Shown here in pieces: positions 2,894-21,608 of a DNA stretch of 28,966 nucleotides. Both the position numbers and the translations under genes were made by a program. How positions within the stretch are numbered: position 1 is the first letter of the stretch; the number at the start of each line of letters is the position of its first letter. Source of the stretch: Myxococcales bacterium (GTDB taxonomy: Bacteria; Myxococcota; Myxococcia; Myxococcales; 40CM-4-68-19). The notes under the pieces were generated by a model, which had not been told where the DNA came from, searched no databases, and worked only from the letters and a program-made list of their open reading frames with translations. The stretch is from positions 1 through 28,966 of the forward strand of contig DATFUN010000411.1 of assembly GCA_035260805.1 (NCBI GenBank), read 5' to 3'.

Positions 2894-3459
2894 GGCGAGC
2901 GGCCGCGATCGCGCTCGCCGGAGGCCGGAGCGCGCGCTTCGGTTCCGACAAGGCGCTGGCTTCGTTCCGCGGCGCGCCACTCCTCGCCGCGGTGCTGCGC
3001 GGCCTCCGGGCGGAGTTCCCGGAGGTGCTGGTGGTCGCCAAGCGCGCCGAGCCCTACGCAGGCTTCGGCGAGCGGATCGAGCTGGACCGCTCCGAGCTGT
3101 ACACGCCGCTGAGCGGGCTCGAAGCGGGGCTCGCCGCGAGCTCGGCCGAGGTGATGTTCTGCTGCGCGGCGGACATGCCGTTCGCGGCCGACGTCGCGCT
3201 GCTCGACGCGCTCTTCGCCGCGCTCGCCGGACACGACGCGGCGGTCCCGGTGCACGCGGGAGCGCGGCAGCCCCTCTGTGCGCTCTACCGGCGCGAGCCG
3301 TGCCTGCGCGCCGCTGCCGAGCTCCTGGCGCGCTCCGCCGTCGGCCCCAAGCGCCTGCTGGACACGGTGCGCACCGCCTTCGTGGATTGGCCCGAGGAGC
3401 GTCCGTTCCTCGACGCCGACACGCCGGCGCAGCTCGCGCGCCTCGAATCCGCCGGGTGA
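2890..3459 (+). CDS. mobA: Molybdenum cofactor guanylyltransferase (MobA-like nucleotidyltransferase)
   Basis: LAGGRSARFGSDKAL, PLSGLEAGL, ADMPF, QPLCALY, DADTP.L motifs. ATGA overlap with the kdd stop. Confidence 0.85.
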   Translation: MRRAAAIALAGGRSARFGSDKALASFRGAPLLAAVLRGLRAEFPEVLVVAKRAEPYAGFGERIELDRSELYTPLSGLEAGLAASSAEVMFCCAADMPFAADVALLDALFAALAGHDAAVPVHAGARQPLCALYRREPCLRAAAELLARSAVGPKRLLDTVRTAFVDWPEERPFLDADTPAQLARLESAG

Positions 3460-3473
3460 GGCGCGTCGCGGCT

Positions 3474-4091
3474 TCAGCCCCGCGCGGCGAGCGGAGGGAG
3501 CTCGTTCACGAACGCCACCTCGTCGAAGCCCAAGCCCAAGAACAGCGCGCGCAGCGACTGCTCGGCGGAGGCGCGCGCCCGGGCCTTGAGCACCTGGTCG
3601 GCTTCCACCTCACGCCCGAACGCGATGCGCGCCAGCTCGAAGAGCTGCGCCGTCTGCTTCGAGTCGAGGTTGGAGCCGATCACCTCCGTCTCGGCGGGCT
3701 TCAGCTCGACCTGCGCCTGCACCTTGGGCAGCACCACCTCGACCCGGCGCCCGCTGACGCGCAAGGAAGAGGCATCGAGCTTGGCGAGGTCGACCGCCAG
3801 ATGCGCCTCGGCGAAGACGATGGCCCTGCCCCGGGGCGGCCGCAAAGACCAGCTCGCCCACTGCACCAGGTCGCCCCAGACGGAGCCCGTCTCGCGCGGA
3901 TCGGGCGCGAAGGCCACCTTCTTGTAGAGGGACACGTCCAGCGTCTGCAGGCGCGCCACCTCTCGCACCTTGAGGACCAGCGCGGGAGCGTCCGGCAGCG
4001 GCGGCGGGCGATGGGTGAAGTGCCATACCGCCCCGGCGCCCAGCGCGGCGGCGAGGAGGCACGCGACGGCCGTCGCCGCGAGGGTTCGCAT
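3474..4091 (-). CDS. DUF4230-like single-anchor membrane protein
   Basis: Start MRTLAATAVACLLAAALGAG (hydrophobic anchor), then VREVARLQTLDVSLYKKV, AIVFAEAHLAVDLAKL, V.LPK, A.A.AEQSLRALFLGLGF..V, a pattern I associate with DUF4230. Confidence 0.65.
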   Translation of the reverse strand: MRTLAATAVACLLAAALGAGAVWHFTHRPPPLPDAPALVLKVREVARLQTLDVSLYKKVAFAPDPRETGSVWGDLVQWASWSLRPPRGRAIVFAEAHLAVDLAKLDASSLRVSGRRVEVVLPKVQAQVELKPAETEVIGSNLDSKQTAQLFELARIAFGREVEADQVLKARARASAEQSLRALFLGLGFDEVAFVNELPPLAARG

Positions 4092-4188
4092 GCAGCCGAA
4101 TGTACCGTAGGGCCGAGCCGCGGCAAGAACGGTGCCTTGCTCCCCTTCAGGGGGTAGGGTAGGTGCTGCGCTCTTTTGCGGAGGAGAC

Positions 4189-5802
4189 TTGGCGGAGCTG
4201 TTCGTCGAACCAGGGAAGGTCGTGCGCGCGCGGGAGCTGGCCCAGAAAGCCGCCCGCGGGGTGCAGTCCTTCATCGACCGGCACAGCACCGTCGCCATCG
4301 AGCGGACGGTGCTTCGGCTCCTCGGCATCGGAGGAGCGGGCGCGCGCGGGGCGCCGCTGGCGAATCTCCTGGTGGACAAGCTGCGCGATGCCAAGGTGCT
4401 GCACAAGGGCGCGGCGTGGTGGATGGGCCGCGCGCTCAAGGCGAGCCCGGGCCGCGATCCGCTGCAGGCGATCGAGCGCATCGCCGCGCGCCCCGAGAAG
4501 CTGCCGCCGCTCACGCCGGCTGAAGACGCAGAGCTGCGCGAGACCATCCGCGCCGATGCCCGGGCGGCTGCGCGCGAGCTGCGCGACAAGATCGAGAAGC
4601 GCAAGGAGCTCAAGCGCAGCCTCCAGGTCGGCAGCTTCCCCGGAGCGCCCTGGAAGTACGTGATCGTCGCCACCGGCAACATCCACGACGACGTGGAGCA
4701 GGCGCGGGCCGCGGCGCAGCAGGGCGCGGACGTGATCGCGGTGATCCGCAGCACGGCGCAGTCGCTGCTCGACTACGTGCCGCATGGCCCGACCACCGAG
4801 GGGTATGGAGGGACGTACGCCACGCAGGAGAACTTCCGGATCATGCGCGAGGCGCTCGACGAGGTCTCGCGCCAGCTCGGCCGCTACGTGCACCTGACCA
4901 ACTACTCGAGCGGGCTGTGCATGCCGGAGATCGCGTACATGGCCGCCGCGGAGCGGCTGGACATGCTGCTCAACGACGCGATGTACGGGATCCTCTTCCG
5001 CGACATCAACATGCAGCGGACCTTCTGCGACCAGTACTTCTCGCGGCGGATCTGCGCCTTCGCGGAGATCATCATCAACACCGGCGAGGACAACTACATC
5101 ACCACCGCCGATGCGGACGAGGCCGCGCACACCGTCATCGCCTCGCAGCTGGTCAACGAAGGCTTCGCGCACCTCGCCGGCATGCCGGAGGAGCTGATCG
5201 GCTTCGGCCACTCCTTCGAGATCGACCCGGCGCGCGAGGACACGCTCCTGCGCGAGTTCGCCATGGCGATGATGGTGCGCGAGCTGTTCCCGCGCAGCCC
5301 GATCAAGTACATGCCCCCGACCAAGCACAAGGAAGGGGACATCTTCTTCAGCCATGCGTACGACGTCATGTCCGACCTGGTGGCGATCTCCACGCGGCAG
5401 GGCATCCAGCTCCTCGGAATGATGACCGAGGCGATGCACAATCCCTTCTTGATGGACCGGTACGTGGCCCTGAAGGCGGCCTCGTACGTGTACCGGGCGG
5501 CACGGCATCTGGGGGACGAGATCTCCTTCAAGCCCGACGGGATCGTCGCCCGCAGGCAGCGCGAGGTGTTCGACAAGGCGCTCGCGCTGCTCGAGGAGGT
5601 CGCCAAGGACGGCATGATGGCGGCCATCGGGAAGGCGCGCTTCGGCGACACCGCGCGGACGGAGACGGGCGGGAAGGGCCTGGACGGCGTCTTCGAGCGC
5701 GCCCCCGACTACTTCAACCCGTTCCTGGAGATCCTCGAGTCCGATCGACGCGCCGAAGGCGCTTCCGGACGGGCCCCCCTGGGGGGCGAGGGCCAGGCGT
5801 GA
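4189..5802 (+). CDS. kamD: D-lysine/beta-lysine 5,6-aminomutase alpha subunit (PLP, TIM barrel)
   Basis: TTG start after SD GAGGAG. Motifs HSTVAIERTVLRLLGI, YVIVATGNIHDD..QA.AAA.QGADVIAVIRSTAQSLLDYVP.G.T.EGYGGTYATQENFR, TNYSSGLCMPEIA, LNDAMYGILFRDINM.RT..DQ.FSR, INTGEDNY, KYMPPTK. Confidence 0.95.
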   Translation: MAELFVEPGKVVRARELAQKAARGVQSFIDRHSTVAIERTVLRLLGIGGAGARGAPLANLLVDKLRDAKVLHKGAAWWMGRALKASPGRDPLQAIERIAARPEKLPPLTPAEDAELRETIRADARAAARELRDKIEKRKELKRSLQVGSFPGAPWKYVIVATGNIHDDVEQARAAAQQGADVIAVIRSTAQSLLDYVPHGPTTEGYGGTYATQENFRIMREALDEVSRQLGRYVHLTNYSSGLCMPEIAYMAAAERLDMLLNDAMYGILFRDINMQRTFCDQYFSRRICAFAEIIINTGEDNYITTADADEAAHTVIASQLVNEGFAHLAGMPEELIGFGHSFEIDPAREDTLLREFAMAMMVRELFPRSPIKYMPPTKHKEGDIFFSHAYDVMSDLVAISTRQGIQLLGMMTEAMHNPFLMDRYVALKAASYVYRAARHLGDEISFKPDGIVARRQREVFDKALALLEEVAKDGMMAAIGKARFGDTARTETGGKGLDGVFERAPDYFNPFLEILESDRRAEGASGRAPLGGEGQA

Positions 5803-6608
5803 GTGAGAAGCAGCTCATCCGGCCGTATGGCGATCGCAAGGACGACGGGGTCGTCCAGCTCTCCTTCGTACTGCCGGTTCCCGTCTCGGAGAAGGCCAAG
5901 GAAGCCGCCGCGCAGGTGGCCAAGAAGCTCGGCCTCTCGCACGTGCTGGTCGCCTCGATGGAGGCGGCGGGCGAGGACTACAGCTTCTTCGTCGTCTACG
6001 GCCGGACCCACCTGCAGCTCGACTACGGCGCGATCGAGGTGCCGGTCGTCGCCCACAGAAAGCACCCCTTCGACGAGCTGAACGACGTCATCGAGCGCGA
6101 CATCGGCCGCAAGATCGTGGTGGTCGGCGCCTGCATCGGCACCGATTCGCACACCACCGGGATCGACGCGATCATGAACATGAAGGGCTATGCCGGCGAC
6201 TACGGCCTGGAGCGCTACCGCATGTTCCGCGCGATCAATCTGGGGTCGCAGGTGGAGCCGCACGCGCTGGTCGAGAAGGCCCGGGAAGTCGAGGCCGACG
6301 CCGTGCTCGTCTCCAAGGTCGTCACCCAGCGCGACGTGCACAAGGAGGACGCGCGCACCCTGGTCGACGCCGCCAGGCAGGCGAGGATCTTCGACAAGAC
6401 CATCTGGATCTTCGGGGGGCCACGGGTCGACCACAAGACGGCGTTGGAGCTGGGCTTCGACGCGGGATTCGGGCCCGGCACCAAGCCCAGCGACGTCGCG
6501 AATTACATCTATTATCGTCTACTCGAGCGACAGGGGCGCGCCCCGGCGCCGCAGCCGACCGCGCACGGGACCCCCGATGCGACCATCCAGGGGGCGGAGA
6601 AGCCATGA
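5799..6608 (+). CDS. kamE: Lysine 5,6-aminomutase beta subunit (cobalamin-binding)
   Basis: GTGA overlap with kamD. Motifs [43 protein letters not shown] (DxH B12 motif), [26 protein letters not shown]. Confidence 0.95.
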
Positions 6609-7009
6609 GCGGCGTCGGATTGAAGGCGCTCTTGCGCCTGCGGCTCGCAGCGCACGACGCGCACTACGGCGGCGGGCTGGTGGACGGCGCGCGGGTGCTC
6701 GGCCTGTTCGGCGACGCGGCGACGGAGCTGCTCGTCCGGCTGGACGGCGACGAGGGGCTGTTCCGCGCGTACGAGTCGGTCGAGTTCCTCGCGCCGCTGC
6801 GCGCGGGCGACTTCGTCGAGGTCGAGGGCGAGATCGTCTCGGTCGGGAAGACGAGCCGGAAGATGCGCTTCGAGGCGCGCAAGGTGATCGCGCCCCGCCC
6901 TGACCTCTCGGACTCGGCGGCGGACGTCCTCGCGGAGCCGGTCGTGGTGTGCCGGGCCGTGGGCACCTGCGTCACCCCGGCGGGCAAGCAGCGCAACCCT
7001 CGCCGCTGA
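6605..7009 (+). CDS. kal: 3-aminobutyryl-CoA ammonia-lyase (hotdog fold)
   Basis: [56 protein letters not shown]....[17 protein letters not shown] overlap with kamE. Confidence 0.92.
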
Positions 7010-7064
7010 CGCGGCCGCGCACGGATGCGCATCTTGCCGCCTGACCAAAACCAACGGAGGCGGT

Positions 7065-7496
7065 ATGCGCGTTCAGGAATTGCTCAAAGGAAACGTCGTC
7101 GCTGTTCGCTCCGATGCCAGCATCCAGGAGGTCGCCCGCAAGATGGCCGAGGAGGACATCGGCTTCCTGCCCGTCGTCGACGCGTCGGGCAAGGCGATCG
7201 GCACGCTGACTGACCGCGACATCGTCGTTCGGCTCATCGCCAAGGGCGGCGACGTCAAGAACGCCAAGGTCGATCAGGTGATGACCAGGGAGGTGGTCAG
7301 CATCCGGCCGGACGAAGACGTCCAGAAGGCGGCGGAGCTGATGCAGGAGCGGAAGATCTCGCGCGTCCTGGTCTGCGATCAGAACGGCAAGCCCCTGGGA
7401 GTGATCAGCCTGGGGGACCTGGCCGAGCGGCACGAGGAGGGCGAGGTCGGCCGCACGGTCAAGGAGGTCAAGGAAGGCTCTTCACTCACCCACTGA
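7065..7496 (+). CDS. Stand-alone tandem CBS domain protein
   Basis: SD GGAGG. Two CBS repeats (IGFLPVVD..G..IGTLTDRDIVVR; VMT..V..I.PDEDV..AAELM....ISRVLV....G..LGVISLGDL). Confidence 0.9.
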   Translation: MRVQELLKGNVVAVRSDASIQEVARKMAEEDIGFLPVVDASGKAIGTLTDRDIVVRLIAKGGDVKNAKVDQVMTREVVSIRPDEDVQKAAELMQERKISRVLVCDQNGKPLGVISLGDLAERHEEGEVGRTVKEVKEGSSLTH

Positions 7497-7530
7497 GCGA
7501 AGCTCCGGCCGGCGGGGTAGGATCCGGCCC

Positions 7531-8358
7531 ATGCCGGCTACCCCCGCCATCCTGACCGCGGCGATCTGCGGCGCGGAAACCACCCGCCAGCAGACGCCGT
7601 ATCTGCCCATCACCGCTGACGAGCTGGCAGCGGAGGCAGAGCGTTGCGCGCAGGCGGGCGCATCGGTCATCCACCTGCACGTGCGCAACGACGACGGGAG
7701 CCCCACCCAGGACCGGGCGCTGTTCGAGAAGGCGATCCGGGCCATCCGCGGACGCTGCGGGGTGATCGTCCAGACCACCACCGGCGGTGCGGTGGGCATG
7801 AGCGCCGAGGAGCGCGCGCAGCCCCTTCTCTGCGACCCGGAGATGGCGACGCTCAACGCCGGCTCGCTGAACTTCGGCGACGACGTGTTCCTGAATCCGT
7901 TCCCGATGGTGCGCGAGTTCGCCCGGCGCATGCGCGAGCGCGCCATCGTCCCCGAGCTGGAATGCTACGACGCGGGGCACGTGGAGAGCTGCCTCGCGCT
8001 TGCCAAGGAGGGGGTCATCGACCTGCCGGCGCATTTCGACTTCGTCCTCGGCGTGCGCGGCGGGCTGGGCGCCTCGGAAGAAAACCTCAGGTTCCTCCTC
8101 GGCAAGCTTCCGCAGGGGTGCAGCTTCAGCGTGGCCGGGATCGGCCGCCACCAGCTCCCCATGGCGGAGCTGTCGTTGCGCCTCGGCGGGCACGCGCGGT
8201 GCGGCCTGGAGGACAACGTCTACTCGTCCAAGGGCGTCCTGGCGAAGGGCTCCTACGAGCTGGTGGCGCGGCTCGCGCAGATGGCGCGCGAGGCCGGACG
8301 GAGCGTGGCCAGTCCCGCGCAAGCGCGCGAGCTGTTGCGCATCCGGCCCCGCGGTTAG
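7531..8358 (+). CDS. kce: 3-keto-5-aminohexanoate cleavage enzyme (BKACE family)
   Basis: TAAICGAETTRQQTPYLPIT..E, AGAS.IHLHVR..DG (Zn-binding HxH), QTTTGGAVGM, EMATLNAGSLNFG, PELECYD.G, FDFVLG, RCGLEDN. Confidence 0.92.
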   Translation: MPATPAILTAAICGAETTRQQTPYLPITADELAAEAERCAQAGASVIHLHVRNDDGSPTQDRALFEKAIRAIRGRCGVIVQTTTGGAVGMSAEERAQPLLCDPEMATLNAGSLNFGDDVFLNPFPMVREFARRMRERAIVPELECYDAGHVESCLALAKEGVIDLPAHFDFVLGVRGGLGASEENLRFLLGKLPQGCSFSVAGIGRHQLPMAELSLRLGGHARCGLEDNVYSSKGVLAKGSYELVARLAQMAREAGRSVASPAQARELLRIRPRG

Positions 8359-10692: not shown

Positions 10693-12258
10693 CTACACCG
10701 GGGAGATTTCGCGTTTTCGGTAAGGGCGGTCGAGGCGCTTTCCTTCGGTAATGCGCAAATAGTGGGCGAGGAGGGGGCGGGTATCGCGAGGGTCGATCAC
10801 GTCGTCGACGTAGGCGTGGGCGGCGACGCGGTAGATGTCGATCATCGGCCGGATGCGGGCGGCCAGCTCCTGCTTGAGGGCCTCGGGATCCTCGGACTGC
10901 GCCAAGAGCTTGTTCGCCGCGATGGCCACCATTCCCTCGGCGCCCATCACGCTGATCTCGGCGCCGGGCCAGGCGAGCAGGGCGTCGGGTTCGTACGCGC
11001 GCCCGTTCATCACGTAATAACCGGCGCCGTAACCTTTGCGCAGCACCACCGTGAGCTTGGGGACGGTGGCCGAGGCGACCGCGTACAGCATCTTCGCGCC
11101 GTGGCGGATGATCCCTTCCTTCTCGACCTTGGTGCCGACCATGAACCCGGGCACGTCCTGCAGGAAGAGGAGCGGGATCTCGAACGCGTCGCACAGGTTC
11201 ACGAACCGCGCCGCCTTGTCCGCCGCATTCACGTCGAGCACGCCGCCGAGGTGCATGGGGTTGTTCGCCACGATGCCCACGCTGCGGCCGTCGATGCGGG
11301 CGAGCCCGGTGACCAGGTTGCGCGCCCAGCGCGGCTTCAGCTCGAACAACCTTCCCTCGTCCACCACCGCCCCGATCACCTTGTGCACGTCGTACGCCTG
11401 GCGGGGATTGTCGGGAATCACGTCGAGGAGCGCCTCGTCGCGGCGGTCGACCGGATCGGCCGTGGCGCGGCGAGGTGGCTTTTCTCCGCAGCGGAGAGGG
11501 AAGAAGGACAGGTACTCCCGCACGGCGGCGAGGCAGGCGGCGTCGTCCGCCACCTCCAGGTCGGCGCACCCCGAGATCTCCGTGTGCACCTTGCTGCCGC
11601 CGAGCTGCTCCTCGGTGACGTCCTCGCCGACCACGCTCTTGACCAGGTACGGCCCGCCGATCGCCATCGAGGAGGTGCCCTTCACCATGGGCACGAAGTC
11701 CGCCAGCCCCGGGATGTACGCCGTGCCGGCCGCGCCTGGGCCGACCATCGCCGCCACCTGCGGCACCACGCCCGAGAGCACGACCTGCTCGCGGAACAGG
11801 TAGCCCGTGTCCGCGAACGAGCCGACGATCGCTGCTTCCTCCGCGTCGGCCGAAAGGCGCGCGCCGGCCGAGTCGACCAGCCAGATCATCGGTATCCGCT
11901 CGCGGAGCGCCAGCTCGCGCAGCCGCGCTGCCTTCCGCTCGCCGACCGGCCCGATGCTCCCGCCGTGCACGGTGAAGTCGTAGGACGCGACGCAACACGG
12001 CCGCCCGTCGATGAAGCCGGTCCCGCACACCACGCCGTCCGCCGGGGCAGGCCGTTGCGACTCTTCCGGCAGCTGCCCGAGGTGGGTGGCGAGCAATCCG
12101 ATCTCGACCAGGCTGCCCGGATCGAGCAGCAGCTCGAGCCGCGCGCGCGCGTCCAGCTTGCCCCGCTCGCGCTGGCGACGCAGCCGCTCCTCGCCGCCCA
12201 TCCGCAGCGCTTCCGCCCTGCGGCGGCGCAGCTCCTCCACCTTGTCGCGCATCGACAT
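10693..12258 (-). CDS. Acyl-CoA carboxylase carboxyltransferase (beta) subunit, PccB/MccB-like
   Basis: Start MSMRDKV after [66 protein letters not shown]...LGG......[44 protein letters not shown]. Confidence 0.9.
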
Positions 12259-12322
12259 ACCCGCTCCGCAAATTACCACTATCCGCCTACATTTGCTTCC
12301 GGTCGATCGATAATCCTGATGT

Positions 12323-12352
12323 TTGACCCTCTGTAGAACGGTGGTCTAGCGT
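12323..12352 (+). promoter_or_regulatory. Putative sigma70-type promoter of the kinase-receptor operon
   Basis: TTGACC-N18-TAGCGT, 12 nt before the kinase ATG, in an AT-richer divergent intergenic region. Confidence 0.45.
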
Positions 12353-12364
12353 GAGCTGACCCGC

Positions 12365-13933
12365 ATGAGCGCCTCGGCCTCTCCGCACCCGCCGCCCGCA
12401 GCCGAGGCGGACCCGCTCATCGGGCGTACCGTCAACGACCGGTACCGCATCGTCGAGGCGATCGGCCAGGGCGGCATGGGCCGCGTCTACAAGGCGCTGC
12501 AGTCGCCGCTCGATCGGGTGGTGGCGCTCAAGATCCTCGGCGCCGGCCACGACCGCGATCCCAATTTCTACAAGCGCTTCTTCCTCGAGGCGTCGGTCAC
12601 CGCCAAGCTGACGCATCCCAATACCATCACCCTCTACGACTACGGGCGCACCGAGGACGGCATCTTCTTCATCGCCATGGAGTTCCTCGACGGCCGCACC
12701 CTGTCCCAGGTCATGCGGCAGGAGGGTCCTCTCGCGCAGGAGCGCGTGGTCCACGTGGCGCAGCAGATCTGCCGCTCGCTCCGCGAGGCGCATGCGCTGG
12801 GGATCATCCACCGCGACCTCAAGCCCGCCAACGTCATGCTGCTGCGGCAGCAGGACGACCACGATTTCGTCAAGGTGCTCGACTTCGGCCTGGTGAAGTT
12901 CTTCCACGGCGAGAGCCCGGACGGCGACATCACCAACGCCGGCACCTTCATGGGCTCTCCGCATTACATCGCGCCGGAGCAGGCCCGCAACCAGGGTCCG
13001 GATCAGCGCTGCGATCTGTACTCGCTGGGCGTGCTGCTCTACCAGATGCTCACCGGCAAGGTGCCATTCACCGCCGAGAGCCCGGTGGACATCATCTTGA
13101 AGCACCTGCACGAGGCGCCGGTGCCGCCCCGCCAGCTCCGGCCCGATCTCGCCATCGACGCGCCGCTCGAGGCCATCGTGCTGCGCTGCATGGCCAAGGA
13201 CCGTGCCGACCGCTTCCAGTCGATGGACGAGCTCCTCGGAGCGCTCAAGGCGGTGCGCCAGGAGCTGACCGGTGCCGCCGGATCGCGCTCGGCGCCGCTG
13301 CCCGTCACTCCCGATTCGCTCCGCCCGCTCCCCGTGCAGACACCGCCTTTGCCGATGACTCCCGGAGCCGGCTCCCGCGCGGTGCGGCCGCCGCCGCTTC
13401 CCGCCGATGCTCTGGAGGAACGCGCGCGCTGGCATCGCTTCACCGGAATGGGCGAACCGACCTGGTCGGGCCGGTCGATCTGGTTCGCGACTACCGCGGC
13501 GGTGCTGGCCGCGGCCGCGCTCGTGGTCTGGATGGGGAGCGGGCGCCGCCGGCCGCCGAGGCCCACGGTGACGGTGGAGCAGGGCGCTCCGGTGGTGGTC
13601 GGCACGTCGGGCCCAGCGGCTCCTACTGCCTACCAGCCGGCGAGCGCCGGACTGACCGTGGTGACGCTCACCAGCGCTCCTTCCGGTGCGGAGGTGAACG
13701 ATGCCGACGGGCGCGCGCTGGGCCGGACGCCGATGGACCTCCCCGTCAGCACCGGCAGGCCGCTGCAGCTGGTCTTGAAGCTCGAGGGCTACAAGCCGTT
13801 CCCGGTCGCGCGCACTTCGCTCTCCGGCGACCGCATCGCCATCACGGCCACCCTGAAGAAGGAACCGTCCAAGGCCGAGCCGCCGCCGGCGCATGTCCGG
13901 CGATCGGCCGGCTACAAGGACGATCCGTACTGA
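12365..13933 (+). CDS. Membrane Hanks-type Ser/Thr protein kinase with TM helix and extracytoplasmic PEGA-like domain
   Basis: GQGGMGRVY, VALK, HRDLKPAN, VKVLDFGL, YIAPEQ, DLYSLG; Pro-rich linker; TM IWFATTAAVLAAAALVVWM; PEGA-like LTSAPSGAEV..G..LGRTP.....L.L.L.GY; ends YKDDPY. Confidence 0.93.
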   Translation: MSASASPHPPPAAEADPLIGRTVNDRYRIVEAIGQGGMGRVYKALQSPLDRVVALKILGAGHDRDPNFYKRFFLEASVTAKLTHPNTITLYDYGRTEDGIFFIAMEFLDGRTLSQVMRQEGPLAQERVVHVAQQICRSLREAHALGIIHRDLKPANVMLLRQQDDHDFVKVLDFGLVKFFHGESPDGDITNAGTFMGSPHYIAPEQARNQGPDQRCDLYSLGVLLYQMLTGKVPFTAESPVDIILKHLHEAPVPPRQLRPDLAIDAPLEAIVLRCMAKDRADRFQSMDELLGALKAVRQELTGAAGSRSAPLPVTPDSLRPLPVQTPPLPMTPGAGSRAVRPPPLPADALEERARWHRFTGMGEPTWSGRSIWFATTAAVLAAAALVVWMGSGRRRPPRPTVTVEQGAPVVVGTSGPAAPTAYQPASAGLTVVTLTSAPSGAEVNDADGRALGRTPMDLPVSTGRPLQLVLKLEGYKPFPVARTSLSGDRIAITATLKKEPSKAEPPPAHVRRSAGYKDDPY

Positions 13934-13942
13934 GGACTAGCG

Positions 13943-16552
13943 ATGACCCACGCGACGCGCGCCCGAAGGAGTCCGGTCCCGCACGGTCTGTTCCGCGGCG
14001 CTGCCTGCGCGCTGCTGCTCTCGCTCTTCGCCGCACCGGCGGCGCGGGCGGACGCCCGCAGCGAGGCGAAGCGCCGCTTCCGCGAAGGGATGGCGCTGAT
14101 CGCGGCTGGGCAGGTGGAGCGCGGCATCGCCGAGCTGAAGCAGGCCTACGCCATCAAGCCGCACCCGGCCCTGCTCTACAACATCGCGCGCGCCTACGTG
14201 GATCTGGGGAAGATCCCCGACGCGCTCGACTACTTCCAACGTTACGTGGCGACCGATCCCGACGACCGCGCGCAGGTCGAGGCGGTGATGACCCGGCTCT
14301 CCGGCGCCGTCGGCGCGCGGGCGCCGCCCGCGCAGCCGGCGGCGGCACCGGCCGTGGACATCGCCCAGTTGCTCGCCGCGTTGCAAGAGCTGATCGAGCG
14401 CAACAAGGCCCCGGCGACGCTGGCTGCTGCGAAGGGAACCGCTGCGCGGGGCGCGGCGCCGGCCGCCGCGAGGAAAGACGACGAGGGAATGTTCGAAGCC
14501 ACCGCGGTGACCGCCCGGACACGGGCCACCGCGCAGGAGATCGCCTCCGCGCTGGAAGGCGGCCACACGGACGAGGACATTTTCGAGGAACAGGTGGTGA
14601 CCGCGGGTGTGCACGCCAGCTCGGAAGCCAGGGCTCCGGCATCGTTGACGGTGATCACCGCCGACGAGATCCGCCTCACCGGCGCGGCGAGCGTCCCCGA
14701 GATCCTGAGGCGGGTCCCCGGCGTGGACGTCGCCGAGATGAACCCGTCGGACACCAACGTCTCGGTGCGCGGGTTCAACCGGCGCGTCGCCAACAAGGTG
14801 CTGGTGCTGGTCGACGGCCGCAGCGTCTACCAGGACTTCCTCGGCGCGACGCTGTGGCCGTTGCTCGACGTCTCGGTGCAGGACATCGCTCGCATCGAGG
14901 TGATCCGCGGCCCCGGGTCCGCGCTCTACGGAGCCAACGCGTACGCGGGCGTGGTGAACATCATCACCAGGACCGGCGACGAGGTGAACGGCGGGCGCGC
15001 TTTCTTGCAGGCGGGCAACTACGGGACGCTCCAGGGTGCGCTCTCCGCGGGCGGGCGAAGCGGCAAGCTCACCTACCGCACCAGCCTCGCCTACGATCGC
15101 GCGGACAAATGGAGCACCGACGCTCCCGCGGGCTCCACGCCGCAGTTCTCGCAGCCGGCGCGCAGCCGCGAGATCCAGCGCGCCGAGGTCGCCGCCGACT
15201 ACCAGTCGAGCGGCCTCTCGATCCGCGGCGGCGCCGGGTTCGACAACATGAACGCGATGGAGGTGTTCCCGCTCGGCTCGCTTCGCACCTTCGGCAACGA
15301 AGGGCAGGGCGGGTTCGTCCGCGCCGAGGCCACCTACGGAGAGACCGACGTCAAGGTCTACTGGAACGCGCTGCGCATGCGGTCGGGCCCGGAGTACTGG
15401 CCGTTTGCCCTGCCGTCGATCCTGACCAGCGTCCGCTCGGACGTGATCGACGCCTCCGCCCGCACTGGCGTTGCCTACGAGTTCCTGGGCCGGCACCGCT
15501 TCAACTTCGGCGCGGGGTTCCGCTACTCGACGGCCGACTGGGGATTCCTCGCACCGCGCGCCGACGGAGGCACGCGCTACACGCAGGAGCATTTCAGCGG
15601 GTTCCTGCAGGACGAGTGGGAGCCTTCCCGGCGCGTCACAGTGACCCTCAGCTACCGCATCGACCGCCACCCGCTCCTGGCCGACCAGCACATCACGGCG
15701 GGAGGCCTCGTCCACTCGCCTCGCGCAACGGTGCTGGTGGAGGTCGCCCGAGACCAGTTCCTCCGCTTCACCACCGGGACCGCGTTCCGCGCGCCCACGT
15801 TTCTGGAGTCCTACGCGAATCTCTTCGCGCCGGTCACGCCGGGCGCGGGCATCCGCTTCCGGGGCGACCTGAACCTGAAGCCCGAGGAGATCCTGCAGGC
15901 GGAGCTCGGCTACAAGGGCCGCATCGGCGATCAGCTGACGCCCGAGGCAGTGGTGTACGTCGAGCGGGTGCGCAACCTGATCACCGACGGTGCGCTGCAA
16001 CCCGCCCCTTCCGGCAGCTCGTCGGGCGGCCAGACGTTGCTCGGGTCCACCGGGTTCCAGAACGAGCCGAACACCTTCGTCGGAATCGGCGCCGAGCTGG
16101 GCCTGCGCTACCAGCCGGCGGACGGCGTCGACGTGAGCATGAACTACTCCTTCGAGAAGATCTCCGATTGCACCTCGACCTGCACGAGCGACCACCTCGC
16201 CGCGAACCAGTCGTCGGCCACGGTCGCCAATACCGCTCAGCACAAGCTGAACGTGGTGGCCACCTGGCGTACGCGCGCGAACTTCGACCTCGGCGTCGAC
16301 GCGCACTACGTCTCCAGCGTGACCTGGTTCGAGAAGTCCTTCGATCCCGGCGCGCCCGCGGGCGTGGTGCTGGCGCCTTACGCGCTGCCCGCATACACGC
16401 TGATCAACGCGCGCGTCGGGTACCGCTTCATCCGCGACCGGCTGGAAGGCGGCGTGTCCGTGTACAACCTGCTCGGCGACGACCACCGCGAACATCCCTT
16501 CGGCAGCCCCATCGGACGCCGCATTTTGATCACCGCGGCCGCGTCGTTCTAG
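13943..16552 (+). CDS. TonB-dependent outer-membrane receptor with N-terminal TPR domain
   Basis: Signal peptide ending ARA|D; TPR-like AKRRFREG..L...G....I.EL.QAYAI.PHP.LLYNIARAY..LG....A..YF..Y; TonB-box-like EEQVVTA; plug APAS.TVIT..EI...G...VPE.LR.VPG, .RGFN...NK.LVLVDGR, IEVIRGPGSALYGANA..GV.NIIT; barrel AFRAPT, L.PE, Y..INAR.GY, NL.G; C-terminal Phe. Confidence 0.93.
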   Translation: MTHATRARRSPVPHGLFRGAACALLLSLFAAPAARADARSEAKRRFREGMALIAAGQVERGIAELKQAYAIKPHPALLYNIARAYVDLGKIPDALDYFQRYVATDPDDRAQVEAVMTRLSGAVGARAPPAQPAAAPAVDIAQLLAALQELIERNKAPATLAAAKGTAARGAAPAAARKDDEGMFEATAVTARTRATAQEIASALEGGHTDEDIFEEQVVTAGVHASSEARAPASLTVITADEIRLTGAASVPEILRRVPGVDVAEMNPSDTNVSVRGFNRRVANKVLVLVDGRSVYQDFLGATLWPLLDVSVQDIARIEVIRGPGSALYGANAYAGVVNIITRTGDEVNGGRAFLQAGNYGTLQGALSAGGRSGKLTYRTSLAYDRADKWSTDAPAGSTPQFSQPARSREIQRAEVAADYQSSGLSIRGGAGFDNMNAMEVFPLGSLRTFGNEGQGGFVRAEATYGETDVKVYWNALRMRSGPEYWPFALPSILTSVRSDVIDASARTGVAYEFLGRHRFNFGAGFRYSTADWGFLAPRADGGTRYTQEHFSGFLQDEWEPSRRVTVTLSYRIDRHPLLADQHITAGGLVHSPRATVLVEVARDQFLRFTTGTAFRAPTFLESYANLFAPVTPGAGIRFRGDLNLKPEEILQAELGYKGRIGDQLTPEAVVYVERVRNLITDGALQPAPSGSSSGGQTLLGSTGFQNEPNTFVGIGAELGLRYQPADGVDVSMNYSFEKISDCTSTCTSDHLAANQSSATVANTAQHKLNVVATWRTRANFDLGVDAHYVSSVTWFEKSFDPGAPAGVVLAPYALPAYTLINARVGYRFIRDRLEGGVSVYNLLGDDHREHPFGSPIGRRILITAAASF

Positions 16553-16565
16553 AACTGCGGCCGCG

Positions 16566-16836
16566 ATGCGGCTGGTCTCCATCGGCCGGGAGAACCTGGA
16601 AGGCGACGGGCAGGCCGACCGCCGCCGGCACGGCGGGCCGGACATGGCCGTGCTCGGCTACGCCGAGGAGCATTTACCCGCGTTGGCGAGACGAGCTGGC
16701 CTTCAGGGATCTTCCCTATGGCGCATCCGGCGAAAACCTCACCGTCGCCGGCGCCACCGAGGACTCGACCTGCCTCGGGCGACGTGTGGCGCGCCGGCAC
16801 GGCGCTGCTGCAGCGATTGGCGCGAGCATCTCGTAG
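16566..16836 (+). pseudogene. Decayed MOSC-domain (YiiM-like) gene fragment
   Basis: MOSC-like peptides in three successive frames: ENLEGDGQADRRRHGGPDMAV.GYAEEH / YPRWRDEL....PYGASGENLTVAG.TEDSTCLG / DVWRAGTALLQ. Each switch needs removal of one base (TTT 16673-16675, GGG 16777-16779). The segment with the catalytic QPR.PC motif is missing. Confidence 0.8.
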
Positions 16837-16880
16837 GCTTGCTCCGCAGGGGCCTGAGCGCCCAAGAGCGCGTCAACCAC

Positions 16881-16926
16881 GCAAAACGAAACGGGTCCGG
16901 GGATCCCAGAGGGCTCCCGGACCCGT
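16881..16926 (-). terminator. Intrinsic terminator for the two small minus-strand genes
   Basis: 11-bp perfect stem ACGGGTCCGGG (16891-16901) / CCCGGACCCGT (16916-16926), followed on the minus strand by TTCGTTTTGC, 25 nt after the stop at 16952. Confidence 0.75.
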
Positions 16927-16951
16927 CGGGGGGTTCGCCCGTTCGCCTCTA

Positions 16952-17152
16952 TCAGCCGCGTTGCGCCGCGGGATCGTCGTCGAGCATGTCGTTCGGCGAG
17001 GGGATCTTGCGCAGCTCGGCCTTGGAGATCTTCCACGCCTGTTGCACGACCCAGCTCAGGGAGCGATCGAGCCGCTGAGCCTGCTGCTGGATCTCGCTGA
17101 GCATGTCCTCGGGAAAGTACAGGCTCTGCTTGCGCGCGTCGTTGGCCGACAT
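16952..17152 (-). CDS. Small myxobacterial RHH-like protein (MXAN_4361/MXAN_4362, TIGR04563-type), copy 2
   Basis: 66 aa, RKQSLYFPEDML.EIQ..A.R.DRSLSW.VQQAWKI. SD GAGGAG; the ATG abuts the stop of its paralog. Family name recalled from memory. Confidence 0.85.
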   Translation of the reverse strand: MSANDARKQSLYFPEDMLSEIQQQAQRLDRSLSWVVQQAWKISKAELRKIPSPNDMLDDDPAAQRG

Positions 17153-17362
17153 CTATTCGCGCTCCTCGCCCGGTGCACGGGCCTCGGTGCCGATCACGTC
17201 GTTCACCGAAGGAAAACGCATGATCTCGTTGCGCGCGATCTTCCAAGCCTGCTGCACGATCCACGAAAGCGAACGGTCCTGCCGGTTCGCCTCCTCCTGG
17301 ATTTCCCGCAGCATGTCCTCGGGGAAGTAGAGGCTCTGCTTTCGTTTGTCAGTACCCGCCAT
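17153..17362 (-). CDS. Small myxobacterial RHH-like protein (TIGR04563-type), copy 1
   Basis: 69 aa, MAGTDKRKQSLYFPEDMLREIQEEANRQDRSLSWIVQQAWKIARNEIMRFPSVNDV; SD GGAGG upstream. Confidence 0.85.
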   Translation of the reverse strand: MAGTDKRKQSLYFPEDMLREIQEEANRQDRSLSWIVQQAWKIARNEIMRFPSVNDVIGTEARAPGEERE

Positions 17363-17422
17363 CAACACCCTCCGGGTGCCAGCGCCGCCGCTTGATGCGG
17401 CGTGTGCCCACGTGCCATCACC

Positions 17423-17451
17423 CTGTCTAGACTTGGACGACAGCGGGGTCA
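17423..17451 (-). promoter_or_regulatory. Possible sigma70-type promoter of the RHH-like pair
   Basis: Minus strand TTGACC-N17-TAGACA about 60 nt before the ATG; the -10 lacks the final T. Confidence 0.35.
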
Positions 17452-17648
17452 AGGATCCGCCTTGTAGGTCCTACGCGGAGCAAGCGGCCACCTCCCTGTA
17501 ATTCCTCCTGCGCAGCAGGAGGCTCTGCTGAAACGTAGGCCGAGGTCCTCCGCAGCCCCACGCGTCGTCTCGCGGCCTTGCGCAGCCACAGCGGTTCTCG
17601 CTGCGCTTCGCCCTGTCCACTGCCATGCACGTAGCGCACTCGTCGCCG

Positions 17649-17664
17649 TGGCACGCGGTTCGCA
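17649..17664 (+). promoter_or_regulatory. Sigma54 (-24/-12) promoter
   Basis: TGGCACGCGGTTCGCA: TGGCACG box with exact GG-N10-GC spacing (GG 17650-51, GC 17662-63). Predicted start near 17675, just before SD GAGAGG and ATG 17690. Confidence 0.7.
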
Positions 17665-17689
17665 GGACTTGTGTAACCGAGAGGTGACC

Positions 17690-17842
17690 ATGTCGGTGAG
17701 CGGACTCATCACCACGAAGGACGTGCTGAAGCACAGCGCGACCATCGTGCGCGAGTTCGGGGCTGGCACCTATCTGCGCTGCTGCCTGGCCATCCTGCGC
17801 GGGCGCCGCACTACGTTCCTCAGCCTGGTGTTCTCGCGCTGA
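17690..17842 (+). CDS. 50-aa basic/amphipathic small protein of unknown function
   Basis: MSVSGLITTKDVLKHSATIVREFGAGTYLRCCLAILRGRRTTFLSLVFSR; SD GAGAGG, strongly GC3-biased codons, sigma54 promoter upstream, palindrome downstream. Confidence 0.8.
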   Translation: MSVSGLITTKDVLKHSATIVREFGAGTYLRCCLAILRGRRTTFLSLVFSR

Positions 17843-17856
17843 GCCCCTCGTCAATC

Positions 17857-17876
17857 CGCTGACGGAGCCGTCAGCG
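17857..17876. other. Perfect 9+9 palindrome CGCTGACGG-AG-CCGTCAGCG (hairpin or operator)
   Basis: Read directly from the sequence. No U-tract on either side. Confidence 0.6.
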
Positions 17877-17910
17877 TCATGACTACCCGTCCAAAAATCA
17901 GACTGCGACG

Positions 17911-17943
17911 AAAAAGGCTGACCAGGCTCTCGCCTGGCCAGCC
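17911..17943 (-). terminator. Intrinsic terminator on the minus strand with no obvious CDS upstream
   Basis: Minus-strand RNA GGCUGGCCAGGC-GAGA-GCCUGGUCAGCC-UUUUU: 12-bp stem (one G.U), GNRA loop, U-tract. Confidence 0.75.
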
Positions 17944-18080
17944 CCGATGGGCTCGGAGGGGGAGGGGGGGACCCCCAAGCCCATTGCCTTTCGAACCGTC
18001 CAGCCGCTTGGCTGGTCACCGTCCAGAAACCTGTTGCCCGCGCTCGTTGTTCCCCGCCGCCGATCCGGTGCCCTCTCTCG
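17911..18080 (-). ncRNA. Candidate small regulatory RNA (~170 nt); 5' end uncertain
   Basis: Three consecutive hairpins ending in a terminator. G.U wobbles work only on the minus strand. C-rich tract. Weak TTGCGC-N17-CAACTT promoter at 18115-18087. Confidence 0.45.
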
Positions 18081-18278
18081 CCGGAGAAGTTGGGTTTGAA
18101 ACACGCCCGGCGCAAGGGCACACGACGCACAAACCCCTGAAAATCCGACCGATCGGAGCATAACGGGCCTGGGTTCCAGCCGCAGCGTGGCGAGCGCGAA
18201 TGCGGTCCACGCAGGCAGGCGAGCAGGCACCCGCTCCATGCGGCCTCTCGATGTCCTGGTTCGGTAGAATGGCAGACG

Positions 18279-19601
18279 ATGACCGGCGACCCCGTCGAAG
18301 TGGCACTGCTCGCCTGCGCCGATCTGTTGCCGCGAGGCGCGTCGGTGCTCGCCGCCTGCTCGGGAGGCCCGGACTCCGCCGCGCTCACCGCGGAGCTGGC
18401 GGCCTGCGCAGACGCGCTCGGCGTGCGGGTCGCCGTCGGACACGTGGATCACGCGCTGCGTCCCGAGTCGGCCGGCGACGCCGAACAGGTCCGGGATCTG
18501 GCGCGATCCTTGGGGCTGCCGTTCCATCTGCGCCGCCTCGAGGCGCTCGACGTGTCCGAGCTCGGCCTCGAAGGGGCGGCGCGGGAAGCGCGCTACGGTG
18601 CCCTCGCGCAGCTTGCCGCACAGGCGGGAGCCGATCGGGTTGCGACGGCGCACACGCGCCGCGACCAGGCCGAGACGGTCCTGTTGCGGCTCGCGCGCGG
18701 CGGCGGGTCGGGAGCGGTTGCGGGAATCCGGCGGAAGCGCGCCCTGACCGAGGGCATCCTCCTCGTCCGCCCGCTCCTCGGCGTGACGCGCGAGGCGACC
18801 GAGGCGTATTGCCGCGCTCGAGGCCTGCGCGCGGTCGAGGATGCGCACAACGCCGATCCGCGGCGCGCGCGGGCGCGGTTGCGCGCGGTCATGCCTGCGT
18901 TAGCCGCCGCGCTCAATCCCCGGCTGGAGGAGGCGCTCGCCGGAGCTGCGCGCATCGCCGCCGAAGAGGACGTGCTGCTCGATGGGCTGGCCAGGGAGGC
19001 GCTCGACTCCGCCACCGCCGGCGAGGGCTTCTCCGCCGAGCGGCTCGCCGCGGTGCCCACCGCGCTGCTCCGCCGCGCGCTGCTCATGGCCGCTCAGGGC
19101 AGTGCGCGTCCGGAGCGCGGCCATCTGGAACAGTTGGTTCATTTCCTGACCGGCCGGCGTACAGGGCGGCTCGACCTTCCCGGCGGACGCGCGGTGATCG
19201 AGCGGGGCGTGCTGCGTTTCGAGTCGAACGCTGCGCTGCCTCCGCCCCCGGTGGATGTGGCGGTCCCCGGCCCCGGCGTCTACCGTTGGGCCGGCCGCGC
19301 GCTCCATGTAGGCGCAGGTGCGCAACGCGCGGATCTCCGGCTGGCTCCGTTCCCCTGGACGCTGCGCAAGCGCCTCCCCGGTGACCGGTTCCGCGTTGCC
19401 GGGGGGCCGGAGAAGAAGCTGGGGGACGTCTGGCAGGCGGAAGGGGTCCCCGCCTCGCGCCGCGAACGCATCCCCCTTCTGGCGGATGCAGGGGGCCGCG
19501 TCTTCTGGGTCGAGGGCCTACCGCCGGGGCCGGCCTGCGCGGCGCCGCCCGAGGACGCGGTCCGGTTCGAATTCGCGCCGGAAATGGATGCCTTGCGCTA
19601 G
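18279..19601 (+). CDS. tilS: tRNA(Ile)-lysidine synthetase
   Basis: ACSGGPDS PP-loop, HVDHALR, AAREARY, TAHT..DQAETVLLRLARG, RPLL, ED.HN.D....RARLR; C-terminal domain R...PGDRF......KKL; upstream of ftsH. Confidence 0.93.
   Translation: MTGDPVEVALLACADLLPRGASVLAACSGGPDSAALTAELAACADALGVRVAVGHVDHALRPESAGDAEQVRDLARSLGLPFHLRRLEALDVSELGLEGAAREARYGALAQLAAQAGADRVATAHTRRDQAETVLLRLARGGGSGAVAGIRRKRALTEGILLVRPLLGVTREATEAYCRARGLRAVEDAHNADPRRARARLRAVMPALAAALNPRLEEALAGAARIAAEEDVLLDGLAREALDSATAGEGFSAERLAAVPTALLRRALLMAAQGSARPERGHLEQLVHFLTGRRTGRLDLPGGRAVIERGVLRFESNAALPPPPVDVAVPGPGVYRWAGRALHVGAGAQRADLRLAPFPWTLRKRLPGDRFRVAGGPEKKLGDVWQAEGVPASRRERIPLLADAGGRVFWVEGLPPGPACAAPPEDAVRFEFAPEMDALR

Positions 19602-19679: not shown

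Positions 19680-21608
<1,929 letters not shown>

Follow-up and report, generated by a model that had tools for sequence, protein, structure and literature searches.

The kinase and receptor genes

The window analysed here, a stretch of 28,966 nucleotides from a Myxococcales bacterium (contig DATFUN010000411.1), holds two adjoining genes that code for a membrane-spanning Ser/Thr kinase and an outer-membrane receptor. Their features are the following:

12280..12364, no strand: intergenic region of 85 bp, presumed promoter region of the kinase-receptor unit, with no sigma-70 consensus
12365..13933, plus strand: Hanks-type Ser/Thr kinase, 522 aa (P0001), from Pfam and catalytic residues invariant in 44 orthologues
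12443..13219, plus strand: cytoplasmic kinase domain, residues 27-285 (PF00069, Pkinase, E 1.7e-49)
13475..13537, plus strand: single transmembrane helix, residues about 371-391, within a hydrophobic segment at about 370-393 and the sole Kyte-Doolittle peak above 1.6 in the kinase
13658..13858, plus strand: periplasmic PEGA beta-sandwich, residues 432-498 (PF08308; AF2 model)
13910..13930, plus strand: C-terminal tail GYKDDPY, residues 516-522, conserved in orthologues and preceded by a variable basic linker
13943..16552, plus strand: TonB-dependent receptor with N-terminal TPR extension, 869 aa (P0002), from Pfam and profile search
13943..14050, plus strand: signal peptide, residues 1-36, cleavage after ARA, read from the sequence
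14051..14317, plus strand: periplasmic TPR module, residues 37-125, two TPR pairs and a capping helix (TPR_19, TPR_2; AF2)
14318..14584, plus strand: variable Ala/Pro-rich linker of about 90 residues (orthologue alignment, AF2)
14585..14605, plus strand: TonB box EEQVVTA, residues 215-221 (orthologue conservation)
14630..14953, plus strand: plug domain, residues 230-337 (PF07715, E 1e-24)
15059..16549, plus strand: beta-barrel, residues 373-869 (PF00593 over residues 373-843, E 4.6e-30)

Both ORFs are the coding frames, with GC3 of 0.90 in the kinase and 0.92 in the receptor, and a 9-nt spacer separates the kinase TGA (13931-13933) from the receptor ATG (13943). This spacing, the build of the kinase (cytoplasmic Hanks domain, one transmembrane helix, periplasmic PEGA) and that of the receptor (a mature N-terminal TPR, Ala/Pro linker, TonB box, plug and barrel) had all been read by the initial annotation, and Pfam, the single hydrophobic segment and the AF2 models bear it out. 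The promoter-like region that it had placed before both genes did not hold up in the same way, as a scan of 12000-17200 for the sigma-70 consensus found no promoter and only the 85-bp intergenic region lies there, common to the kinase gene and a divergent carboxyltransferase gene (minus strand, 10693-12279). The neighbours in the window are the carboxyltransferase, small ORFs, tilS and ftsH. Sigma70_r2 had 15 matches in the genome (73% complete) and none on the contig of the window, and the STN domain (PF07660) had none anywhere in the 73%-complete genome, in agreement with the earlier reading that neither an ECF sigma or anti-sigma gene nor an STN domain accompanies the pair. TonB_C proteins are encoded in the genome.

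In the kinase, the Gly-rich loop, the VAxK Lys, the alphaC Glu and the HRDLKPxN, DFG and APE motifs are all present, and the 44 orthologues share without exception G36, G37, G39, K56, E75, H149-R150-D151, N156, D173-F174-G175, the activation-loop T190 and P204-E205 of the APE motif. Judged from these residues, the kinase is of RD type and active-looking. Its best NCBIfam match was NF033483 (PknB/Stk1 PASTA), but identity as such a PASTA kinase was rejected, as the match reached 332 bits against an equivalog cut-off of 450 and covered the kinase domain alone (residues 19-301), and no PASTA domain was found. The PEGA domain scored 25.5 bits against a cut-off of 20.8 and was modelled by AF2 as a beta-sandwich of seven strands (pLDDT about 95). 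Within the periplasmic part, conservation in the orthologue alignment is limited to the core of PEGA and the final 7 residues, and all 44 aligned kinases end, after a variable linker, in G-[YF]-K-x-[DN]-(I)-P-Y or a close variant. As a C-terminal tail this type of motif is confined to this kinase in the genomes checked.

The receptor has a signal peptide with its hydrophobic core at about residues 16-34, a TonB box just before the plug, and the C-terminal aromatic typical of outer-membrane barrels (...AASF). Its profile aligned with CirA across plug and barrel (positions 209-772, E 1e-50). The TonB box reads Y/F-E-E-x-V-V-T-A among 44 orthologues, with E216, V218, V219 and A221 invariant or nearly so, and on these motifs the protein is predicted to be a working TonB-dependent transporter. 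The first mature residue, D37 (nucleotide 14051), is nearly invariant in the orthologues and opens the TPR, the best-conserved periplasmic part of the receptor (TPR_19 over residues 52-119, E 5e-10), which AF2 modelled as five helices (residues 38-124, pLDDT 94-97) making 2.5 repeats. Invariant or nearly invariant in the TPR are D37, R39, A42, F46, G49, Y69, P73-H74-P75, N80, Y85, Y101 and D108, among others. The linker that follows varies freely and has two lower-confidence helices in the AF2 model (residues 140-154 and 191-205). Pfam found no PEGA or CarboxypepD_reg-like domain before the plug of P0002. A FecA-type transducer with an STN domain was also rejected, as Pfam finds solely TPR families in residues 37-125.

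Conservation of the pair across Myxococcota

Surveying the genes of such TPR-fused receptors for a neighbouring kinase, as the initial annotation had suggested, gave adjacency throughout the phylum. Among 63 informative loci, drawn from 80 receptor loci in named Myxococcota genomes including Myxococcus xanthus DK1622, the kinase gene was directly upstream at 54, within 3 kb at 5, present only as a fragment at 2 and absent at 2. The kinase was likewise upstream on the same strand at 24/24 orthologous receptor loci found in 40 relatives. The gene order is the same in M. xanthus DK1622, where the receptor gene is directly downstream of the kinase (ABF89024.1), with an overlap of 4 nt or a gap of 38 nt depending on the gene call. 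One copy of the receptor, and no more, is present in 148 of the 301 genomes sampled from the phylum, a tally that takes in one unpublished genome (G191) on which no specific claim rests.

Only the kinase and the receptor are conserved in this neighbourhood, together with a lipoprotein gene that lies 3' of the receptor in most relatives. Conservation beside the pair does not extend to any substrate, phosphatase, FHA protein or regulator. The lipoprotein carries no SusD or other Pfam signature, and its gene was not found in the genus of the window. The module was ancestrally one of three genes, and since the TPR and the kinase tail are intact in this genus all the same, the TPR is independent of the lipoprotein.

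Gene adjacency is evidence of functional linkage and not of binding or direction. It could even be purely historical, with two co-transcribed proteins working in unrelated processes. At least one genome has the orthologous kinase (tail LYKDNPY) and the receptor on different contigs, and therefore the linkage is not obligatory. However, same-strand adjacency persists even where receptor identity between lineages is as low as 34-40% and the flanking genes all differ, and the genes, 9 nt apart in the window, overlap in many relatives, which makes co-transcription without a shared function very improbable.

Possible pairing of TPR and kinase tail

The TPR and the tail, the conserved ends of the two proteins in the periplasm, may also have changed together. 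Basic residues at TPR positions 44 and 72 are retained wherever the kinase tail has two acidic residues, and are mostly lost with the tails KTDIPY, KGAY or KDVPY. This covariation of charge is suggestive only, being confounded by phylogeny and comprising very few independent events. The fold of the TPR model is like that of three-repeat modules with C-terminal peptides as ligands (CTPR390, RPAP3, Tah1, and FKBP52 with Hsp90 MEEVD), in weak and generic matches (E 0.007-0.07) under the significance line of the tool. The conserved R39, R44, R47, N80 and R83, picked by eye alone, are candidates for the basic/Asn residues of a carboxylate clamp.

A TPR encoded after a membrane kinase is a recurrent theme in several paralogous families and not a one-off fusion. 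A second receptor of the genome, on contig C19, consists of TPR, PEGA repeats, plug and barrel and is encoded after another TM-PEGA kinase, and a 315-aa TPR protein is located after two further such kinases of this genome. In two complete genomes, which have 120 and at least 150 kinases in about 10 Mb each, a kinase was directly upstream at 11 of the 22 loci with this TPR type, where less than one would be expected. A different tail, x-I-K-x-[EG]-R, is conserved in the second kinase family, and further TPR-linked kinases end in D/N/S-P-Y/F.

The kinase and the receptor probably constitute an undescribed signalling link between the inner and outer membranes, which we picture as a trans-envelope receptor-kinase module. 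The receptor TPR sits on its flexible linker before the TonB box, in the same compartment as the PEGA domain, basic linker and tail of the kinase, and would dock the tail GYKDDPY, possibly together with PEGA. Ligand binding and TonB-driven movement of the plug would alter the position or availability of the TPR, as for the STN domain of FecA-type transducers. This would change how the RD-type kinase oligomerises and autophosphorylates its activation loop, and the kinase would phosphorylate cytoplasmic targets. Here we infer the TPR-kinase contact, a signal running from outside to inside, a ligand and targets, and to the claim that the TPR docks the tail or PEGA and relays the state of the receptor to phosphorylation we give, tentatively, a little short of an even chance.

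Operon linkage would be accounted for equally well if the receptor imported a compound that the kinase PEGA detects in the periplasm, the two proteins making no contact and the TPR having TonB, peptidoglycan or the lipoprotein as its partner. Enterobactin is sensed after uptake, in the periplasm, by PfeS or PirS. At 20 loci in Myxococcaceae, a gene for a Peripla_BP_2 binding protein is found divergently upstream, a hint of a true uptake pathway, and the barrel and plug look much like those of common small transporters in the CirA or BtuB class. We nevertheless consider sensing of this kind unlikely, as it leaves unexplained both the invariant peptide that ends the kinase after a variable linker and the occurrence of the same TPR type after other TM-PEGA kinases even where no transporter is joined to it, and the TPR is still conserved where the lipoprotein was not found.

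Influence might also run the other way or be structural, with PEGA and tail acting on the receptor; they might, for instance, control access to the TonB box, keep the receptor stable or in place, or tether the two membranes. The kinase domain would then report or set the state of the cytoplasm, and no information would pass inwards from the surface. The PEGA model has a weak fold likeness to transthyretin-like domains and to SusC NTE domains beside the TonB box (9hfj, 6ytc; E about 0.007), and the paralogous receptor on contig C19 has PEGA x2 and CarboxypepD_reg in its own N-terminal extension, so that PEGA and TPR modules change places between the two partners. However, these fold matches are weak, the simplest role for an RD kinase that is intact and keeps an invariant activation-loop Thr is that of a signalling output, and we know of no TonB-dependent transporter that requires a kinase for transport. 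Thus, we find coupling of this kind quite improbable.

Docking of the TPR on the kinase, as preferred here, could extend beyond the pair in the window. It is conceivable, if somewhat doubtful, that myxobacteria have a general periplasmic docking code in which short, family-specific C-terminal peptides of membrane Hanks kinases are each read by a cognate TPR. These peptides may be G-Y-K-D-D-P-Y for the window pair, x-I-K-x-E-R for kinases of the second receptor family, and variants of D/N-P-Y/F in other cases, and the TPR may come immediately behind the signal peptide in an outer-membrane protein, which may be a TonB-dependent receptor or a small, possibly outer-membrane-anchored protein. Such a code would imply that receptor-kinase pairs spanning two membranes form an entire family, the bacterial analogue of receptor/co-receptor kinases, in which the window pair is conserved most widely. 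Myxobacterial genomes encode 100 or more Hanks kinases each, very few of them with a known input, and a rule of TPR-tail docking would at once give a sizeable share of them a partner in the outer membrane.

Relation to known envelope systems

To our knowledge, all characterised TonB-dependent transducers signal via anti-sigma/ECF-sigma pairs. Signalling from such a receptor through a eukaryote-like Ser/Thr kinase would add a second route, with a different mechanism, by which information from the surface crosses the two membranes. Our literature search returned no paper describing a pair of kinase and TPR-TonB receptor and no phenotype reported for either gene. The pair is present in the genetically tractable M. 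xanthus DK1622 and therefore the hypothesis is open to direct testing.

The analogy with FecA and PupB drawn in the initial annotation stands for the topology and fails for the parts. As in FecA-FecR-FecI, PupB-PupR and FpvA-FpvR, an outer-membrane TonB receptor has an extra periplasmic domain before the TonB box and adjoins the gene of an inner-membrane signalling protein that crosses the membrane once and has its C-terminal part in the periplasm. In contrast to those systems, the extension is a TPR and not STN, the partner is a Hanks Ser/Thr kinase and not an anti-sigma factor, no ECF sigma gene is nearby, and the output would be phosphorylation instead of regulated proteolysis and sigma release. 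In Cycloclasticus, an outer-membrane receptor and a periplasmic protein feed a two-component system (PahS-PahP-TCS, PMC10570129), which likewise couples the receptor to an inner-membrane kinase-type sensor and not to a sigma/anti-sigma pair; however, the kinase reported for that system is a histidine kinase and the periplasmic adaptor is separate, with no TPR fusion and no Hanks kinase.

SusC/RagA and Oar-type receptors also place a transthyretin-like periplasmic beta-sandwich near the TonB box, and a lipoprotein gene often follows the receptor, as in most relatives of this locus. Here, however, the beta-sandwich (PEGA) is on the inner-membrane kinase while the receptor extension is a TPR, and the lipoprotein of the relatives lacks the SusD signature and was not found in this genus. 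With the PASTA kinases (PknB, Stk1, PrkC) the kinase shares an RD Hanks domain, one transmembrane helix, an extracytoplasmic sensor domain and, probably, activation by dimerisation and activation-loop phosphorylation. It differs from them in that the sensor is PEGA with a C-terminal peptide instead of PASTA repeats, the host is diderm and the partner is in the outer membrane.

The peptide-binding TPRs of Hop, RPAP3, Tah1 and FKBP52, which bind the EEVD of Hsp70/Hsp90, are small modules of two to three repeats, and the candidate ligand here is comparably an acidic peptide at the extreme C-terminus, on a flexible linker. The setting here is nevertheless periplasmic, and the structural likeness is weak and unaccompanied by sequence kinship. 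In LpoP-PBP1B, an outer-membrane-anchored TPR regulator likewise hangs on a long disordered linker, and it reaches an inner-membrane enzyme.

Conservation of the kinase-receptor pair in myxobacteria

The kinase gene and the TonB-dependent receptor gene do form a pair, and this pairing is kept throughout the phylum. The window (G+C ~70%) belongs to an uncultured myxobacterium whose assembly has 3.0 Mb and is 73% complete. Third-position GC indicated two same-strand genes in it, and the 9-nt spacing between them held, with the kinase stop codon TGA at 13931-13933 and the receptor ATG at 13943. The window contains the following genes:

4132-5802, D-lysine 5,6-aminomutase alpha subunit, neighbouring gene
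7531-8358, beta-keto acid cleavage enzyme, neighbouring gene
10693-12279, minus strand, carboxyltransferase, neighbouring gene divergent from the kinase
12365-13933, kinase (product P0001)
13943-16552, same strand as the kinase, receptor (product P0002)
18279-19601, tilS, neighbouring gene
19680-21608, ftsH, neighbouring gene

As the carboxyltransferase gene upstream of the kinase is on the opposite strand according to third-position GC, the pair stands as a unit of its own, with 85 bp of divergent intergenic DNA in front of it. The initial annotation had placed a promoter-like region there, which was not recovered: a sigma-70 consensus scan found no promoter or terminator in the 85 bp. As for iron regulation, the likeness of the sequence to a Fur box, judged by eye, was just 12/19. 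The five neighbouring genes are kept in close relatives only and are outside the kinase-receptor module; with the ORFs of the window as queries, solely the two genes recurred (48 and 52 of 58 loci), any neighbour being found at 8 loci at most.

The receptor orthologue was single-copy in 40 related genomes, and the kinase was upstream on the same strand at all 24 loci that cover the receptor 5' end, while non-orthologous TonB receptors retrieved alongside were without a kinase upstream. A protein search gave 2418 receptor relatives. When 185,579 species genomes were scanned with a pattern, 80 receptor loci came up, every one myxobacterial, from genera including Myxococcus, Corallococcus, Pyxidicoccus, Archangium, Cystobacter, Hyalangium, Vitiosangium and Labilithrix and families including Polyangiaceae and Sandaracinaceae, with receptor identity to P0002 as low as 34%. 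The survey of TPR-bearing receptor genes for an adjacent kinase, put forward in the initial annotation, came out in favour of the pairing. At 63 loci the upstream DNA was long enough to judge: the kinase was directly adjacent in 54 and displaced by an insertion, within ~3 kb, in 5; two had kinase fragments only and two had no kinase. In one of the latter the orthologous kinase, with the C-terminal tail LYKDNPY, was on a separate contig, and for the second one the strongest kinase matches were at contig edges. That this gene order is pure coincidence is hardly credible.

The receptor was present in 148 of 301 sampled genomes of the phylum (one unpublished genome, G191, included), being close to ubiquitous in two large families (121/140 and 12/17) and not found in several other families of the sample (0/45, 0/17, 0/14). 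Myxococcus xanthus DK1622 has the same gene arrangement (kinase ABF89024.1), and the presence of the pair in this model organism makes direct testing possible.

Domains of the two proteins and comparison with FecA-type systems

The domain descriptions proposed earlier for both genes agreed with the profile searches. P0001 (522 aa) is a Hanks kinase and not a PASTA kinase, with a Pkinase domain (E 1.7e-49), a single hydrophobic helix near residues 371-391 and a PEGA domain at residues 432-498 above the Pfam cut-off. Its catalytic set (Gly loop, K56, E75, HRD, N156, DFG, T190 of the activation loop and P204-E205 of the APE motif; P0001 numbering) was invariant in 44 orthologues, and judged by these residues it is thus an active-looking RD kinase, not a pseudokinase. 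The AlphaFold2 model of residues 392-522 was a confident seven-strand beta-sandwich (pLDDT ~95) with disordered linkers on both sides. Its PDB neighbours were transthyretin-like domains, among them the NTEs of two SusC transporters, at an E-value of just ~0.007. A reading close to this likeness is that the coupling is reversed or structural, the PEGA domain doing in trans what the NTE does in receptors that have one of their own; we consider it quite improbable.

P0002 (869 aa) consists of a signal peptide (1-36), a TPR (Pfam TPR_19, E 5e-10), an Ala/Pro-rich linker, the TonB-box-like EEQVVTA (215-221), plug, barrel and a terminal Phe. When residues 37-228 were modelled with AlphaFold2, five helices at residues 38-124 (pLDDT 94-97) formed two TPR pairs and a cap, and the linker had two further helices of lower confidence. 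The fold matches of the TPR (E 0.007-0.07) were generic small TPRs, many of them from structures with a C-terminal peptide bound, LpoP being another; this likeness of the model to peptide-binding TPRs is a lead and not a test. Over plug and barrel the profile of 44 receptor orthologues matched the colicin I receptor CirA (E 1e-50), and no curated equivalog was matched by it. The best NCBIfam match, TOL_0244, reached 206 bits where the cut-off is 645, and the PDB neighbours were CirA and BtuB; the receptor is not assignable to a substrate.

As had been noted at first, a TPR stands in place of an STN domain and no ECF sigma gene is nearby: no STN domain was found in the window's own genome (73% complete) and no sigma-70 region 2 on the window's contig. 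Five TonB_C proteins are encoded elsewhere in the genome. The STN, anti-sigma and ECF features of FecA-type transducers are absent from this receptor and locus, and P0002 is therefore a member of the TonB-dependent transporter family and not a FecA-type transducer. The suggested analogy to FecA-type systems held for the topology of the proposed relay, but not for its parts, and the output would differ as well. In the full-text library searched, no paper describing a TonB receptor that acts with a Ser/Thr kinase turned up, in line with the earlier remark that a characterised example was not known, and none on PEGA kinases or the DK1622 kinase accession. The kinase-receptor pair is probably a new form of cell-surface signalling.

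Kinase tail and receptor TPR

In the 44 aligned pairs the receptor TPR was conserved as well as the plug, and the linker behind it was not alignable. Conservation in the periplasmic part of the kinase was confined to the core of the PEGA domain and the seven C-terminal residues (GYKDDPY in the window), which follow a low-complexity linker of variable length. Every orthologue has this tail as G-[YF]-K-x-[DN]-P-Y or a close variant (KTDIPY, KGAY and KDVPY in Polyangia), at times with one or two extra residues beyond. Docking motifs typically look like this, a conserved peptide at the very C-terminus held on a flexible tether, and they are typically read by TPRs, for example in Hsp70/90 co-chaperones and PEX5. 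The strict expression [YF]K..P[YF] at the C-terminus retrieved just this kinase in the window's genome, and the DNA pattern YK[DE][DN]PY found the orthologue and one internal unrelated match in two of three complete genomes.

In pairs whose kinase tail retains two acidic residues, TPR positions 44 and 72 carry basic residues; in the others they are mostly Ala, Thr or Leu. This split runs along the class boundary and hence reflects one or a few events, which makes it no more than suggestive of covariation between TPR charge and tail acidity. Complex prediction for the TPR arm (37-156) and kinase residues 428-522, using 44-row alignments and run without controls, scored 0.16 against a mark of 0.32, a result that weighs neither way on docking.

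We propose that the TPR would dock the kinase tail and/or the PEGA domain, and that the ligand or TonB state of the receptor would pass via the TPR to kinase activity, a relay to which we give somewhat less than an even chance. It is unlikely that the kinase instead senses an imported compound without contact to the receptor.

Further TPR-kinase pairs and accompanying genes

A second kinase-receptor family (type-2) was found on another contig of the same genome, C19, where a TM-PEGA kinase is followed by a receptor with TPR and PEGA repeats in its extension, and a third arrangement on contig C385, where two tandem kinases precede a small TPR protein:

L114 (G000:C19:5000-14000), 5471-7702, minus strand, type-2 kinase, TM-PEGA, end ...VKDPAIKAER
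L114, 2552-5470, minus strand, type-2 receptor, 972 aa, signal peptide, TPR, PEGA repeats/CarboxypepD_reg, plug, barrel
L115 (G000:C385:1-7399), 4600-6387 and 2718-4556, minus strand, tandem TM-PEGA-like kinases, the one adjoining the TPR gene with end ...EETIKIDF
L115, 1674-2621, minus strand, 315-aa protein, signal peptide, homologous TPR, Pro/Ala linker, hydrophobic segment, end ...QGRF

Both TPRs align in register with that of P0002 (hhalign probability 95%), and of 15 related loci, 14 had the type-2 kinase next to the receptor and with the conserved C-terminus x-I-K-x-[EG]-R. In two complete genomes a kinase domain was directly upstream on the same strand at 11 of the 22 loci matched by the P0002-type TPR; as kinases make up just ~1.5-3% of genes there, fewer than one would be expected. 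TPR-after-kinase is a recurrent theme and not a single fusion. On looser inspection upstream of TPR paralogues, around half of the remaining TPR-linked kinases had D/N/S-P-Y/F in their last few residues, which supports the view that such tails are shared by many kinases of myxobacteria. Co-duplication of the two kinase-receptor families was dropped, since the closest paralogues of the P0001 kinase domain are the C385 kinases (39% identical) and not the type-2 kinase (32%). TPR 'Mkap' proteins are known from M. xanthus.

The 3.5 kb upstream of the receptor at the type-2 locus L164 (G009:C198) yielded no kinase, and at L041 (CAWBVQ010000007.1), a locus of the first family, just the C-terminal kinase part and tail were detectable upstream; both could be rearrangements or divergent copies. 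Many small TPR proteins downstream of kinases at L118-L137 (Corallococcus exercitus and a Polyangiaceae MAG) end ...GL.GTF, ...LRLTY, ...IGSFQ or ...MGRF. Such ends are similar to the signal at the C-terminus of outer-membrane barrels, and an outer-membrane anchor is therefore possible for these proteins.

In DK1622 a gene for a 404-aa lipobox protein without a Pfam family (L145:11154-12368) comes next after the receptor gene and overlaps it by 4 nt. Homologues of ~320-400 aa came immediately after the receptor at 61-71 of the 80 loci, the window's own family among them, and were not found in the window (16553-18278), in two other assemblies of the genus (L031, L032) or anywhere in the window's genome (73% complete). 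The ancestral cassette is thus kinase, TPR-receptor and lipoprotein, of which the window's genus has a reduced version, and as TPR and tail are intact without it, the lipoprotein is unlikely to be the conserved partner of the TPR. An Atlas look-up placed it in its own myxobacterial cluster alone (0.97), with beta-sandwich lipoproteins of Bacteroidota as sub-threshold leads.

Other accompanying genes, none of them in the window, were seen in Myxococcaceae: a Peripla_BP_2 binding-protein gene divergently upstream of the kinase at 20 loci (in DK1622, L145:5862-6731, minus strand), and a response regulator and an MsrPQ-like pair (Ferric_reduct and Oxidored_molyb) downstream.
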